Positions 7,744 through 20,036 of a stretch of 64,000 nt of DNA are shown here, piece by piece. The DNA is taken from positions 17,501-81,500 of the forward strand of contig CAYGFH010000003.1 of assembly GCA_964349125.1 (NCBI GenBank), read 5' to 3'. The notes below the pieces were generated by a model. The model ran no database searches. It was not told where the DNA came from and saw nothing but the letters and a program-made list of their open reading frames with translations. Both the position numbers and the translations under genes were made by a program. The stretch is from an uncultured Gammaproteobacteria bacterium (GTDB taxonomy: Bacteria; Patescibacteriota; Microgenomatia; UBA10105; UBA927). The stretch's first letter is position 1, and every line of letters starts with the position of its first letter.

Positions 7744-8331
7744 GTGCGATACAATCAGGCTATGGAAACACAATTTGACGGACAACAGGAAGGTGAGCGG
7801 ATACTCTACACGGTACATGAGCACCCGCTGACAGCATACATATCCTATGTGACAATCATTGCCGTGGGGCTTTGTATTTTCGCCTTTACCGCACTTATTT
7901 CCTCCACATTTCCCGATGCTTCGACACTTGTGTGGGCGATTGGTATTCTATTTGGACTACTCGAGCTTGCAGTAGGTGTCCTGTGGACGAAACGTCATCA
8001 TGAACAGTCTGTCGCATATATCACAGACCGGCGCATTATGAGATTTGAAGCTGTATCGCCGTTTTTTGTAGCCAAAAGAGCACTATTCTGGAATGAGGCG
8101 CTGAAAGCCAAGGCAGTCACGAAAAATATTTTTTGGAAGCTCCTGAACATCGGGATGGTCGTCGTGGAGACCCAGGTTCCTGATCAGGGCGAAGTACGGT
8201 TGGGGAATGTGTATTACTATGACGATCTGGTGAATTATATAGATAAAATTCTGTTTTTGTTTAAAAATTCGCCAAGGGAAATTTCTTCACTTAAGCCATT
8301 TGTCCCCAAACCAAAAGGGAAACGGGATTAA
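7744..8331 (+). CDS. Membrane protein with a bacterial PH-like (bPH_2 / YdbS-like) domain
   Basis: Two TM helices are followed by an ITDRRIMRFE...VETQVPDQGEVRLGNV region typical of bPH_2 domains. This is a weak assignment. Confidence 0.35.
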   Translation: MRYNQAMETQFDGQQEGERILYTVHEHPLTAYISYVTIIAVGLCIFAFTALISSTFPDASTLVWAIGILFGLLELAVGVLWTKRHHEQSVAYITDRRIMRFEAVSPFFVAKRALFWNEALKAKAVTKNIFWKLLNIGMVVVETQVPDQGEVRLGNVYYYDDLVNYIDKILFLFKNSPREISSLKPFVPKPKGKRD

Positions 8332-8355
8332 CCAATTTTCCCACCAGCACAATCC

Positions 8356-8384
8356 TTGACCCGACAGAGCTGTCGTCGTATACT
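8356..8384 (+). promoter_or_regulatory. Sigma70-like promoter TTGACC-17nt-TATACT for thrS
   Basis: TTGACC at 8356-8361, a 17 nt spacer, and TATACT at 8379-8384, about 260 nt upstream of the thrS ATG. Confidence 0.45.
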
Positions 8385-8390
8385 ACAGAT

Positions 8391-8647
8391 AATCTTTTCG
8401 ATTGTCCGCCTTCGGCGAGACAGGCATGAGGAGTCACTACCCTCACAGAAAAGCGCGCAATCTGCGAAGTGATTGATATTGAGATCACCGAATTTCAGAT
8501 GGAACCGCCCCGAAAGGAGCTCTGAATGACTGGTGATTTTTTTGATGGTTGCTTGATAGGCGAATTCTGATTCGCGAATCTAGAAACCATCAATCCAGTG
8601 AGGTACACCGAACTGGAGTCATTGTATTAATACAGTAAGGGGGTACT
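8391..8647 (+). promoter_or_regulatory. Long structured thrS 5' leader with a terminator/attenuator hairpin (8482-8543) followed by U7. It is a candidate Thr-specific T-box riboswitch.
   Basis: An extended imperfect hairpin runs AGATCACC...TTCAGA...TCTGAA...GGTGAT and is followed by TTTTTTT. Its 5' strand contains UGGAACCGCC at 8500-8509, which resembles the T-box antiterminator core UGGNACCGCG. An ACC (Thr) triplet lies in a candidate specifier region near 8435. Confidence 0.35.
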
Positions 8648-10402
8648 ATGTCAGACACAGACAAGCTAAATAACCTACGTCATTCAGCCGCACATCTACT
8701 TGCGGCTGCTGTCATGGAGATATGGCCGCACACGAAACGCACCATAGGGCCCGCTATTGAACACGGATTTTACTACGACTTCGATTTCGGTGATGTCAAA
8801 GTCTCAGAGGACGATTTCCCAAAGATTGAAGCAAAAATGAAAGAGCTTGTTAAGTCATGGAAATCATTCGATAGACGAGAGGTAACCAAAGATGAAGCGC
8901 TGTCACTATACTCGTATAATCAGTACAAACAGGAACTCATTGAGGAATTTGCATCAGAGGGACAGTCCCTTACTGTCTATACCTCTGGCACGTATGAGGA
9001 TTTATGCAGGGGAGGACATTGCCCGCATCCGAATAATGACCTCAAGCATTTCAAACTCCTTTCTATCGCGGGCGCGTATTGGAGAGGCAGTGAAAAAAAT
9101 AAAATGCTGACGCGCATATACGGCACCTGTTTTCCAAAAGCCGTGGAATTAGAAGAGCATCTGAAACTACTCGAAGAGGCTAAAAAACGGGATCACAGAA
9201 AGCTTGGGGCTGACCTGGGTCTGTTTGTGTTTTCCGATCTGGTAGGACGGGGACTTCCTCTCTGGACTGCAAAAGGTGCGACGGTGCGACGCGAACTGGA
9301 ACGGTTTGTCGTCGATGAAGAGGTCAAACGCGGGTATTCACACGTATACACCCCAGATATAGCCAACCTAGAGCTCTACAAGACCTCTGGACACTATCCG
9401 TACTATAAAGACACCATGTATGCCCCTATCACCATTGAGGATGAAGACTATATGCTGCGTCCCATGACGTGTCCGCATCATTTTGAGCTCTATAAATCTA
9501 AGCCTCACAGTTACCGCGAGTTGCCGATACGGTTTGCTGAACTGGCCAAGCTGTACCGGTTTGAAAAATCCGGTGAGCTTACCGGCTTAATGCGTGTCAG
9601 AAGCTTTTGTCTGGCTGATGCCCATATTATTGCGCAGAAAAGTCAGGCTACGGCCGAAATCAACGGAGTGCTGGATCTTATAGATTATCTGGCGCAATCA
9701 TTTGGCCTAAAACCGACAGTGAACTACCGGTTCCGACTTTCTCTTGGTGACAGATCTGATGAGAAGAAATACTTCAAAGACGACGCTTCGTGGGATCAGG
9801 CAGAAGAGGTCCTCCGAGGAGTGCTCAAAGAACGGAAAGCGGATTTCTATGAAGCGCCGAATGAAGCTGCATTTTATGGCCCAAAGATTGATGTGCAAAT
9901 GAAAAACATCGTCGGAAAAGAAGAAACCGCGTTCACAGTGCAGTATGATTTTGTCATGCCAAAACGCTTTGCTCTGGAATATACGACAGAAAGCGGGACT
10001 AAAGAAGAACCCATCGTCATCCACAGATCGTCCATAGGCGCCATAGAGCGAACCATCGCATTTCTCATTGAATTCTATGGGGGAGCGTTCCCACTCTGGC
10101 TTGCACCGACCCAAGCGGTCATCATCCCGATTGCCGAGCGCCATGCCGAGGCTGCGAAATTAGCCTCAGACGCCCTCTTGGCACGGGGAATTCGGGTGGA
10201 AGTGGATGGCAGGAGCGAATCCATGCAAAGCAAGATTCGCGATAATACTTTACAAAAAGTGCCATACTTAGGTATAATAGGGGATCGGGAAGCTGGGGCA
10301 GGCGAATTGTCTGTCAGAACCAGAAGTGGTGAAGATCTCAAAACGATGAGTATTGAGGCCTTTATCACCCGATTGACAAGCGAGATTGAGCATAAACTTT
10401 AA
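8648..10402 (+). CDS. thrS: Threonyl-tRNA synthetase (N-terminal TGS domain absent)
   Basis: The N-terminus is HSAAHLLAAAVMEIWP...GPAIEHGFYYDF, the start of the N2 editing domain. Class II motifs, RDHRKLG, and the anticodon-binding domain are present. It is 584 aa against about 640 typical. Confidence 0.9.
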   Translation: MSDTDKLNNLRHSAAHLLAAAVMEIWPHTKRTIGPAIEHGFYYDFDFGDVKVSEDDFPKIEAKMKELVKSWKSFDRREVTKDEALSLYSYNQYKQELIEEFASEGQSLTVYTSGTYEDLCRGGHCPHPNNDLKHFKLLSIAGAYWRGSEKNKMLTRIYGTCFPKAVELEEHLKLLEEAKKRDHRKLGADLGLFVFSDLVGRGLPLWTAKGATVRRELERFVVDEEVKRGYSHVYTPDIANLELYKTSGHYPYYKDTMYAPITIEDEDYMLRPMTCPHHFELYKSKPHSYRELPIRFAELAKLYRFEKSGELTGLMRVRSFCLADAHIIAQKSQATAEINGVLDLIDYLAQSFGLKPTVNYRFRLSLGDRSDEKKYFKDDASWDQAEEVLRGVLKERKADFYEAPNEAAFYGPKIDVQMKNIVGKEETAFTVQYDFVMPKRFALEYTTESGTKEEPIVIHRSSIGAIERTIAFLIEFYGGAFPLWLAPTQAVIIPIAERHAEAAKLASDALLARGIRVEVDGRSESMQSKIRDNTLQKVPYLGIIGDREAGAGELSVRTRSGEDLKTMSIEAFITRLTSEIEHKL

Positions 10403-11521: not shown

Positions 11522-11548
11522 CCCGCGGGATACATCCGACATACGAAA

Positions 11549-11572
11549 ATCCCGCTACGGCGGGATTTTTTT
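11549..11572 (+). terminator. Rho-independent terminator after rplT (ATCCCGC-TACG-GCGGGAT followed by TTTTTTT)
   Basis: A perfect 7 bp stem with a tetraloop and a T7 run sits 28 nt after the rplT stop. Confidence 0.7.
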
Positions 11573-18609: not shown

Positions 18610-18851
18610 CCTTATGATATGATCCTTTATACAAGTTAATAGAAATGCATTGATGGAGATTCAAGTAGACTGTATACAGTGACACATGAGAGAGCAGGCG
18701 GTTGGTGCAAGACCTGACGAATGTATACGGATCGAAATACCCTCCTGAGCATCCCGACGAACAAACACGAGTAGTCGAGGACGGGTATGCCCGTAACAGC
18801 ACTATACTGTGTTGCCTTTTGCAAAGCAGTGAATGAAGGCTATGGATCAAT

Positions 18852-18877
18852 AACCCGCCTCCGGCCGGGTTTTTTTG
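18852..18877 (+). terminator. Intrinsic terminator-like hairpin (CCCGCC-TCC-GGCCGGG) followed by T7
   Basis: A GC-rich hairpin at 18852-18869 is followed by TTTTTTT at 18870-18876. It is on the plus strand although no plus-strand CDS ends here, which implies an untranslated plus-strand transcript. Confidence 0.5.
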
Positions 18878-18920
18878 TACATAGCGAAGTAAGGTGGTAC
18901 CGTCCTCTTTTATAAGAGAA

Positions 18921-18965
18921 CCCTTATATTCACCCCGTTTTGGGGTGTGTATAAGGGTTTTTTTA
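18921..18965 (+). terminator. Second compound hairpin plus U-run, 16 nt upstream of the RBS of the PRTase-like gene. It looks like an attenuator or expression platform.
   Basis: CCCTTATA...ACCCCG-TTTT-GGGGTG...TATAAGGG is followed by TTTTTTTT at 18958-18965. GGAGG at 18972-18976 and the ATG at 18981 follow. Confidence 0.45.
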
Positions 18966-18980
18966 TTATTTGGAGGATAT

Positions 18981-20036
18981 ATGAATACTATTTTTTGGAT
19001 GACAGATGAATTGTTTGCCAAATCCAGGGCAGAAGATTGGAATGCGGTAAAAAAGGCAAGTGAGGAGTTGATTTCTCTGATAGGGAATGAACGTTTCTCT
19101 CACACTATAATTTCGCCTGATAGCTGTATAGGACCGCTTGTACGATCACTTGCAGGTCATCAGTTTAGTGCTGTCGTTGATTTGACTGACAACGGATGGT
19201 TATCTCAGGGGCTTGAGAGTGCACTCTCGCGCGGTACGCCGATTATAACTGATCTCCATATCAGCCGCGTGAGAGAGATCAGTGATCCAACACTCCCCAC
19301 GTCGGGGCATATAGTTCGCACACCACTTGAAGATGTCGTGAGCCTCAGGCAGACTGTTGATTTTTCCCGATCGCTGATACTTGACGATGTATCATTTAGC
19401 GGCAAGAGCAGTGAGTTAGTTATGAGAATATTGGGTCTGGATCCGAGACACACAACCCACGGCTTTCTGATAACAAATACAGGAGACTTGGGGCCTAAAA
19501 CAGACGGAGCGTGGTCCCGGCTGTCAAAAGAAGGCGCAAGGATTCATACTGGGGCGGTCATAAATACTTCGGAAGGTGACGACGGATGGCACATCAAGGA
19601 TTTTGTCCGACATGAACATTTGGATCGTGCTCTCGGGCTTATTCCGGTTATCCACGAACTTTTCAAAGATTCGCGTGGAAATAGAGATATGCTCCAGATG
19701 CTTTTTTCGATGGATTGTACCCGATCCTTATTGTTTCCACACGCGGTTTCTGGTGGAGCCCTCGCAGGGGTGGACGAAGCACAATTTATACGTACAGCGC
19801 AGTTTAGAGGTGAGGGAATGCATACAACAAATCCGAACCTGCTTACATCACCTGCGTTCCTGGAACATATATCGACCGATTCATTCGCGCGACATATCAA
19901 TGAGGTCAGCGATATACTGAATGGCATACAGCAGCTGACAAATCTTCCGGAGGGTAACCGTGATTCGATCGAGGGAATACGTCGTATCGTGGAATCAGAA
20001 CTTCATCAGTCTTCACCAGAAAGAAGGCAACTATGA
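18981..20036 (+). CDS. Phosphoribosyltransferase-like (PRTase-fold) protein with N- and C-terminal extensions
   Basis: LILDDVSFSGKSS matches the PRPP-binding motif (hydrophobic x4-DD-V-x-[ST]-G-x-[ST]) of type I PRTases. The start is set at the ATG at 18981 with a GGAGG SD. The six-frame ORF start at 18894 is an upstream extension that spans the terminators. At 352 aa it is much longer than a canonical PRTase. Confidence 0.4.
   Translation: MNTIFWMTDELFAKSRAEDWNAVKKASEELISLIGNERFSHTIISPDSCIGPLVRSLAGHQFSAVVDLTDNGWLSQGLESALSRGTPIITDLHISRVREISDPTLPTSGHIVRTPLEDVVSLRQTVDFSRSLILDDVSFSGKSSELVMRILGLDPRHTTHGFLITNTGDLGPKTDGAWSRLSKEGARIHTGAVINTSEGDDGWHIKDFVRHEHLDRALGLIPVIHELFKDSRGNRDMLQMLFSMDCTRSLLFPHAVSGGALAGVDEAQFIRTAQFRGEGMHTTNPNLLTSPAFLEHISTDSFARHINEVSDILNGIQQLTNLPEGNRDSIEGIRRIVESELHQSSPERRQL

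Follow-up and report, generated by a model that had tools for sequence, protein, structure and literature searches.

The 64-kb stretch of DNA analysed here in its entirety (the window) carries thrS, the gene for threonyl-tRNA synthetase (ThrRS; 8648-10402, forward strand, 584 aa, ATG at 8648), as the first gene of a thrS-infC-rpmI-rplT operon, with pheS next. Pfam assigned the tRNA_SAD, tRNA-synt_2b (class II core) and HGTP_anticodon domains to ThrRS, and the genes that follow encode IF3, L35 and L20. Our study concerns the leader upstream of thrS. T-boxes are textbook examples of RNAs that recognize a particular tRNA and register whether it is charged, and we judge it likely that this leader (about 8391-8543) belongs to the T-box lineage as a compact, much diverged form that senses uncharged tRNA-Thr and controls read-through into thrS-infC-rpmI-rplT. 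Comparison with related leaders supports its description as a tRNA-Thr attenuator that derives from the T-box and has a new expression platform, for which a mechanism is proposed below, and it probably switches by an undescribed route.

The closest homologues of the window ThrRS were from Patescibacteria of the Candidate Phyla Radiation (CPR), including Gottesmanbacteria, and on sequence grounds the host organism of the window is itself a member of this group. An initial annotation of the stretch had held that a T-box before thrS would be phylogenetically informative, and the placement of the host bears out that interest.

The thrS leader and its homologues

The sigma70 promoter that the initial annotation had placed about 260 nt before thrS was confirmed (Table 1). 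The end of its -10 element lies 264 nt from the thrS ATG, transcription would be expected to start near 8391, and a TTGAC...TAnnnT promoter was found at an equal distance from the first helix in all of the homologues whose upstream sequence was examined. The leader (8390-8660) is unusually structured compared with shuffled sequences (z = -4.4). Its conserved, promoter-proximal RNA of ~150 nt (about 8391-8543) consists of a Stem-I-like unit, a Stem IIA/B-type pseudoknot and a long hairpin followed by U7.

The comparison set comprised 160 related loci from genomes and metagenomes of Patescibacteria/CPR, mostly Gottesmanbacteria, Levybacteria and their relatives (loci are cited by L numbers). Plain MAFFT alignment mis-registered P0, the basal helix of the hairpin, and the 3' arms, in that leaders of the GAUCACC/GGUGAUU and GUACCGUU/AACGGU types were joined on their common ACC. 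A model, R1, was therefore built from nine cleanly aligned members with a hand-written structure, and the remaining sequences were re-aligned to it. When searched against 169 sources (0.88 Mb), R1 recovered its own nine sequences and ten independent ones (L151, L086, L083, L163, L001, L168, L166, L065, L106 and L165; 57-87 bits, E 1e-9 to 1e-15), all of the latter in sense orientation and directly before thrS. This gave a total of 19 distinct members, all at thrS, from Gottesmanbacteria/Chisholmbacteria-like Patescibacteria. Weaker matches (24-58 bits) were thrS leaders with a classical 3' half, and no other R1 match in the 0.88 Mb was better than E ~0.7.

In the model-fitted alignment of the 19 sequences, 96.3% of 589 cells were paired, compared with 75% for shuffles and 41-47% for slid partners. 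Both sides had changed in 27 of the 31 pairs, and the covariation score was 0.674 against 0.10-0.16 for slid partners. For a MAFFT alignment of 18 leaders that had not been fitted to the structure, the pairings identified independently by RNAalifold were limited to P1, the specifier hairpin, A1 and that of the pseudoknot. These comparisons indicate that the leader is a conserved RNA family and a feature well beyond chance. An ordinary structured 5' untranslated region (UTR), whose terminator incidentally contains UGGAACC, would fit with the absence of an Rfam match, but this explanation is refuted by the comparative data and is barely credible, given 19 distinct homologues that have the same architecture, covary strongly and grade into leaders detectable with the T-box model RF00230.

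Table 1. Features of the thrS leader and operon in the window
Feature	Position	Strand	Details	Basis
sigma-70-type promoter	8356-8384	+	TTGACC (8356-8361), 17-nt spacer, TATACT (8379-8384)	10/12 consensus matches
5' domain (helix P1 around J1, specifier hairpin and J2)	8394-8453	+	P1, 6 bp: CUUUUC 8394-8399 with GAAAAG 8448-8453; J1 8400-8427; J2 8445-8447	RNAalifold, covariation
Lineage-specific UUCG-type hairpin inserted in J1	8402-8423	+	UUGUCCGCCUUCGGCGAGACAG	Folding
Specifier hairpin	8427-8445	+	U8427/GAGG 8428-8431 with CCUC 8441-8444/A8445; loop 8432-8440	Covariation
Specifier codon and conserved purine	8436-8439	+	ACU 8436-8438, A8439	MAFFT alignment
Stem IIA/B-type pseudoknot	8454-8475	+	IIA: CGC 8454-8456 with GCG 8464-8466; loop CAAUC 8458-8462 with GAUUG 8471-8475	Loop/partner complementarity in 19 members
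Purine-rich linker	8476-8482	+	AUAUUGA (family consensus AAAU-K-R-A-G)	Alignment
Terminator hairpin (P0, J5' and J3' around A1-bulge-A2)	8483-8538	+	P0: GAUCACC 8483-8489 with GGUGAUU 8532-8538; J5' 8490-8493; J3' 8527-8531	Minimum free energy (MFE) fold, covariation
T-box discriminator-like core (A1-bulge-A2)	8494-8526	+	A1: UUCAGA 8494-8499 with UCUGAA 8521-8526; bulge UGGAACC 8500-8506; A2: GCCCC 8507-8511 with GGAGC 8516-8520, GAAA loop 8512-8515	Covariation, alignment
U7 tract of intrinsic terminator	8537-8543	+		Sequence
Extra leader between terminator and Shine-Dalgarno (SD) sequence	8544-8636	+	~93 nt, three hairpins	Folded; window-specific
SD sequence	8637-8643	+	AAGGGGG, before thrS	
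Intrinsic terminator closing the operon	11547-11572		3' of rplT	

Structure of the leader

The leader has no long Stem I carrying the distal platform (AG bulge and distal loop) that stacks on the tRNA elbow, and the 5' domain is instead formed by P1, an internal loop and a hairpin of 4-5 bp. Compensatory changes were present in five of the six P1 pairs, with 95.6% of cells paired across the 19 sequences, and in three of the four pairs of the specifier stem (GAG/CUC, GAAG/CUUC, CCAG/UUGG, CCGU/ACGG), where 100% of cells were paired. The asymmetric junction of J1 (...GCAU) and J2 (AAA/GAA/GGA) is conserved and, by inspection, does not appear to match the standard K-turn consensus; the initial annotation had advised a check for a specifier loop with a GNRA-like K-turn in stem I, and no long Stem I of GNRA/K-turn type was seen.

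The terminal loop of the specifier hairpin is 9-11 nt long in most members (7 nt in L106) and presents a Thr codon followed by a purine. Across the MAFFT-aligned sequences, the first two codon letters and the trailing A (alignment columns 47, 48 and 50) were identical in 18 of 18, and the third letter was only ever C or U, so that every change in the specifier is synonymous for Thr. Five members have ACU (the window, L161, L001, L162 and L086) and the other 14 have ACC. The initial annotation was thus correct in expecting a Thr codon in the specifier region but not in its choice of ACC 8439-8441, which straddles the loop and the 3' stem of the hairpin; alignment with 18 homologues pointed to the ACU that lies 3 nt upstream. 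As L001 reads ACU-AUC, the ACC alternative is unavailable there, and the window specifier was placed at ACU. The leader therefore presents a codon for the cognate amino acid with a purine (ACU-A) in a Stem I loop, as T-boxes do, and, in the manner of class II T-boxes, places it at the tip of a shortened Stem I, within the terminal loop.

The 3' strand of P1 is separated from stem IIA by 0-1 nt with no hairpin, and a Stem II with an S-turn was not found in the family. The pseudoknot itself was present in 19 of 19 members, with an IIA of 3 bp and 3-7 bp of complementarity between the loop and the downstream strand, realized with 17 distinct loop sequences; cognate loops and partners scored a mean of 4.9, compared with 3.1 for non-cognate combinations. 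In class I T-boxes, conserved purines (RRRxG...AA) flank Stem III and belong to the discriminator. No Stem III hairpin was found here between the pseudoknot and A1, where the purine-rich AAAU-K-RAG string, often with AA, persists. The 6-9 nt at the Stem III position form P0 by long-range pairing with nucleotides 3' of A1. The linker ahead of P0 is short (5-11 nt) and the single-stranded path from pseudoknot to A1 measures 14-23 nt (mean 19). By manual count, the same path is 18 nt in L042, which has neither P0 nor Stem III. An AAUGAAG-type string also lies ahead of Stem III in a second, classical T-box of the window at 18641-18928.

The long imperfect hairpin with U7 that the initial annotation had described in the 5' UTR was recovered by folding at 8481-8540 (-20.1 kcal/mol, z = -3.2, 0/200 shuffles folding as well), but the leader does not end there, as had been thought, since the extra leader of Table 1 follows before the SD sequence. 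A simple terminator scan did not flag the hairpin because it takes only uninterrupted stems with loops of 3-8 nt. All seven P0 pairs were compensatory, with 98.5% of cells paired, and a U6-U8 tract lies directly 3' of P0 in 19 of 19 members. P0 adds ~-12 kcal/mol to the inner element in the window, as estimated with ViennaRNA. Within its 5' strand, ACC (ACU in L008) and a following purine were invariant in 19/19 (window 8487-8489) and pair with GGU in the 3' strand, while the rest of P0 covaries and the register of the helix differs between two subtypes. This motif reads YCACCAAA in several members, resembling the specifier loop, and could be a second specifier-like site or plain common descent.

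Above P0 lies a complete T-box discriminator-like core. All six pairs of A1 and all five of A2 were compensatory, and the 7-nt bulge between them reads UGGAACC in 17 of the 19 members and UGGAAAC in two. In the window, the bulge is part of UGGAACCGCC (8500-8509) in the 5' arm of the hairpin, and the covariation of its A1 and A2 flanks supports the identification of UGGAACC as a T-box bulge made in the initial annotation. In class I T-boxes, the basal pair of A2 is a G.U wobble (5' G, 3' U) that serves as the steric sensor of the aminoacyl group. In the family, this pair (column 132:157) was GC in ten members, UA in five, UG in three and AU in one.

The arrangement of this core is where the leader departs from known T-boxes. 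In a classical T-box, the 3' strands of A1 and A2 turn into the 5' strand of the terminator (PMC7583486). Here, the two strands of P0 lie on either side of A1, one 5' and the other just 3' of it, neither A1 nor A2 gives up its 3' strand, and A1-bulge-A2 is nested whole as the upper part of the terminator, so that the mutual exclusivity of the classical switch was not found. An all-against-all column scan of the family revealed no conserved alternative (antiterminator) helix, only trivial pairings of purine and U tracts. In the window, GUGAU 8469-8473 could pair with AUCAC 8484-8488, but this candidate was rejected as it was, by eye, unconserved in relatives. The antiterminator that the initial annotation expected to sequester the 5' arm of the terminator is thus missing, the element itself being the top of the terminator. 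A classical T-box, with a UGGAACC antiterminator that competes with the terminator and is stabilized by tRNA-Thr, is suggested by the presence of the bulge, a Thr codon, a terminator and the thrS context, and leaders of that kind occur before thrS in other Patescibacteria (L014, L042, L058, L068 and L072). However, with A1, bulge and A2 inside the terminator and compatible with it, no conserved alternative helix for either strand of P0 and no RF00230 match, we regard this explanation as very improbable for the window.

Relationship to T-boxes and a proposed switch

Rfam 15 at its gathering thresholds (93 bits for RF00230) gave nothing in the 64-kb window, and leaders of the nested type were also unmatched in a scan of 19 loci; nor did the leader match an L20 leader or any other Rfam family (E<=10). 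The link to T-boxes is instead provided by intermediates. Other Patescibacteria thrS leaders that have a Stem III scored 36-43 bits with RF00230 (E 4e-6 to 3e-4), and L014, L058, L068 and L072 retain the G.U pair at the base of A2. L042 shares the UGGAACC bulge and, at 58.5 bits with R1, the 5' domain of the family, and it matched RF00230 at 29.4 bits (E 0.012); L042 and L118 have a classical terminator overlapping A2'/A1'. This chain of a common 5' domain, a classical terminator and a weak RF00230 match places the window leader in the T-box lineage, and the family grades continuously into RF00230-detectable leaders. In addition, a 7-nt bulge between A1 and A2, a IIA/B pseudoknot and a codon with a purine are all T-box features (PMC7583486).

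The initial annotation had named three observations that would count against its proposal of a Thr-specific T-box attenuator in the 5' UTR: no match to the RF00230 covariance model, no alternative antiterminator structure and no Stem I foldable around its ACC. Two of the three were made, the RF00230 check giving no match even at E<=10. The comparative evidence nevertheless supports an attenuator in the 5' UTR that is T-box-related and Thr-specific, and a modified version of the idea therefore survives.

Compared with the class I T-boxes (RF00230; B. subtilis tyrS, thrS and glyQS), the window element is likewise a promoter-proximal leader of an aminoacyl-tRNA synthetase gene, with a cognate codon and purine in a loop, a IIA/B pseudoknot, a purine-rich string before the discriminator, a UGGN-ACC bulge between A1 and A2, and an intrinsic terminator with a U tract. 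It differs in having no long Stem I, Stem II S-turn, local Stem III hairpin or G.U sensor, and in a terminator that encloses A1-bulge-A2 without consuming their 3' strands. Class II translational T-boxes with an ultrashort Stem I are represented by ileS of Actinobacteria (Sherwood et al. 2015, as cited in PMC7778990 and PMC7583486). With these as so described, the leader shares a truncated Stem I, a specifier in the terminal loop, the lack of a platform for the tRNA elbow and the IIA/B pseudoknot; in five of its relatives, too, the start codon lies directly against the regulated helix. However, class II T-boxes need a Stem II S-turn and retain Stem III, neither of which is present here. Their switch is between a sequestrator and an antisequestrator with strands in common and has no U-tract terminator, whereas the output of the thrS leader is a terminator. 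A Stem II S-turn with an SD sequestrator opposed to A1/A2 was not found in the leader, and in the window the SD sequence lies ~100 nt downstream. Of the classical thrS T-boxes of other Patescibacteria, L042 and L118 share the 5' domain of P1, specifier hairpin and pseudoknot, while L014, L058, L068 and L072 share UGGA and a 7-nt YYACCAA specifier loop. Their terminators, by contrast, overlap A2'/A1' and are mutually exclusive with them, and most retain Stem III and the G.U pair.

A T-box relic, in which a constitutive leaky terminator, an RNA-stability element or control by ThrRS, L20 or IF3 would operate independently of tRNA and the motifs would be leftovers, has to be weighed against a functioning tRNA sensor. 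L20 and IF3 autoregulate in other bacteria, and the operon encodes both. The loss of Stem III, the Stem II S-turn and the G.U sensor, a terminator that does not compete with A1 or A2, and the additional hairpins at 8544-8636 of the window would also suit such a relic. Yet the bulge and the codon-A motif are near-invariant down to ~57% ThrRS identity, the surrounding helices all covary, and the third position of the codon changes only synonymously. Control by ThrRS has a precedent in the translational operator of E. coli thrS, where ThrRS binds mimics of the anticodon arm with anticodon-like loops (NGU). The leader resembles that operator in being an autoregulated thrS leader with hairpins. Its loop, however, is complementary to the anticodon, as it shows the codon ACY, its output is a terminator, and no conserved NGU loop was seen in the family. 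ThrRS-operator and L20-leader readings were rejected on account of the codon loop and the lack of Rfam matches, and we consider a relic unlikely overall.

For the diverged T-box that we favour, we propose that the anticodon of tRNA-Thr would pair with ACU/ACC and its free 3' end (N73-CCA) with UGGA, as in classical T-boxes. The A of UGGA would then be complementary to a predicted U73 discriminator base of tRNA-Thr, for which the use of UGGA by thrS leaders and of UGGU by the other T-box of this genome is indirect support. Since P0 encloses A1-bulge-A2, the default state would terminate, with P0, A1, A2 and the U tract together forming the OFF conformation. We suggest, with moderate to low confidence, that uncharged tRNA-Thr clamped at the specifier and the bulge would keep P0 open and give read-through. 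The 3' end of an aminoacylated tRNA could not dock, and the linker would be freed, P0 would form and transcription would stop at U7. A tRNA held at both ends would leave the segment between pseudoknot and A1 extended or latched near the bulge, while P0, as a helix of 7-10 bp stacked under A1, would move the 5' end of that segment away from the bulge and pseudoknot. On the basis of this geometry, tRNA docking and P0 are proposed to be mutually exclusive. The model draws on the roles of the purines that flank Stem III and of the tRNA-A1 stack (PMC7583486). It is supported by the location of the 5' strand of P0 at the exact Stem III position, after the purine string and before a short, often A-rich junction, and a regulatory need is supported by sister lineages, which place a Thr leader peptide and terminator at the same site. 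In L007, L083, L151, L166 and L168, the thrS AUG follows right after the U tract and J3' (GGGAAG, AGGAAG, AGGAGA) is SD-like. This arrangement is consistent with the opening of P0 being the step that needs control, and in these five one helix may gate translation as well as transcription.

In a steric variant, tRNA bound to the bulge and 5' domain would block the hairpin from forming in, or entering, the exit channel of RNA polymerase. The base of the hairpin is only ~13-17 bp below the bulge, and the absence of a competing helix also suits this variant, but it is purely geometric speculation and does not explain why the 5' strand of P0 is always found at the Stem III position with so short a linker; we rate it as rather improbable.

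Several points weigh against a functioning T-box of any design. The Stem I distal platform, Stem II S-turn and Stem III hairpin, which are regarded as essential in characterized T-boxes, are missing, as is the G.U sensor pair at the base of A2 (G8507-C8520 in the window), and tRNA binding by an antiterminator on its own, with no Stem III, is poor (PMC7583486). RF00230 gave no match at E<=10 in 8250-8750 or in the nested-type L004, L005, L040 and L065. As A1-bulge-A2 is compatible with the terminator, the classical logic is inapplicable, and, judged by secondary structure only, a bound tRNA should stabilize the hairpin rather than open it. P0 contributes ~-11 to -15 kcal/mol where it can be cleanly isolated and would be costly to keep open. 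The tRNA-Thr gene of the clade was not found, as ARAGORN on the window and 169 loci returned Val, Asp, Phe and Leu only. Furthermore, the pair counts come from an alignment that the model itself fitted to the structure. We advance only tentatively, and short of calling it probable, that the leaders form a new T-box class without Stem III or the G.U sensor and are possibly the first T-boxes recognized in Patescibacteria/CPR. In such a class, the terminator would sequester the inter-domain linker in place of the antiterminator strands, and control would depend on a tRNA held at both ends that keeps this linker extended or latched, as a tension-type geometric switch that needs no alternative secondary structure.

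Other features of the locus and significance

Leader-peptide attenuation of the thr-operon type would likewise couple read-through to the charging of tRNA-Thr, and it appears to be used at the same site before thrS in sister Patescibacteria. In L012, L015, L017, L020, L024, L026, L034, L035, L037, L045, L052, L062, L063, L074 and L078, short open reading frames (ORFs) with runs of 4-7 Thr codons (e.g. MQYAKLTTTTTTTIPA, ending at a stop) lie 100-250 nt before thrS, and a G+C-rich hairpin with a U tract comes after them. These Thr-run ORFs look like thrS leader-peptide attenuators. The window leader differs, as sequence inspection found no run of Thr codons in any frame and its sole ATG-started frame, from 8426, encodes MRSHYPHRKARNLRS before a stop. 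Patescibacteria would thus use at least three devices at thrS, namely the classical T-box, the nested T-box and the Thr leader peptide.

Two parts of the window leader are insertions relative to its homologues. The J1 hairpin is missing in L161, whose ThrRS is 96% identical, and in most other members, while L008 has an unrelated hairpin at the same site. The segment 8544-8636 is also missing in L161, where the SD sequence and AUG lie ~20 nt past the U tract. No further copies of either were found in the window or the fetched loci, and their interpretation as repeats or mobile elements was rejected. They could possibly add a translational or stability layer. In the MFE fold, 8438-8444 pairs with the SD region.

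The window ThrRS and those of most relatives are missing the N-terminal TGS domain. The close homologues P0008, P0042 and P0045 are ~755 aa long and have an additional PF04073 (YbaK/prolyl-tRNA editing-type) domain. ARAGORN and Rfam found no tRNA genes in the 64-kb window, and none was found in ~8 kb beyond its right end. A tRNA-Val(GAC) gene lies 0.1-2 kb upstream of thrS in 36 of 168 related loci and is missing from the window. Before thrS in L010 (~2170-2500), an N run is surrounded by unusual, short repeats in tandem, with ACAGGGA and CATGTC as units, and no leader is recognizable. Weak matches to the Phe leader RF01859 were seen upstream of pheS in L040 (5396-5512) and L004 (5422-5533), at 28-32 bits against a 55-bit cut-off. 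A Phe leader before pheS in the window was considered because of these matches and was rejected, the equivalent region holding the rplT terminator alone.

The second T-box of the window is of the classical kind and matched RF00230 with 80.1 bits (E 7e-18) at 18641-18928 on the forward strand, extending through a U7 at 18960-18966. It has a long Stem I, a UGGUACC bulge at 18896-18902, with UGGU in place of the UGGA of thrS leaders, and a separate terminator overlapping A1'; its specifier is probably UAC (Tyr). The strength of this match demonstrates that the RF00230 model is not blind in the window genome. No Pfam or NCBIfam family was assigned to the gene that follows (18981-20036, 351 aa), although a phosphoribosyltransferase (PRTase)-like LILDDVSFSGKSS motif is present in it. 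Genes for a HAD hydrolase and an inosine-uridine nucleoside hydrolase come next, which is an unusual regulon for a T-box.

To our knowledge, all characterized T-boxes switch between two hairpins that share strands and rely on Stem III and the G.U pair for amino-acid sensing, and the expression platform of the thrS leader is unlike that of every described T-box we know of. No publication joining T-boxes with Patescibacteria or CPR was found in a literature search of incomplete coverage, and the claim of novelty carries the limit of that coverage and of Rfam 15. As Rfam 15 misses the nested leaders, and as the T-box at 18641-18928 falls just below its threshold, T-box regulation in CPR genomes is under-counted.

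In summary, a family with only a specifier loop, a pseudoknot and a UGGNACC bulge would define a far smaller functional core for the T-box than the one known, and the bulge inside a terminator would show a second way of coupling tRNA docking to termination. The leaders would also add the ultrasmall, host-dependent Patescibacteria, in which gene regulation is almost unexplored, to the organisms that use tRNA-sensing riboswitches.

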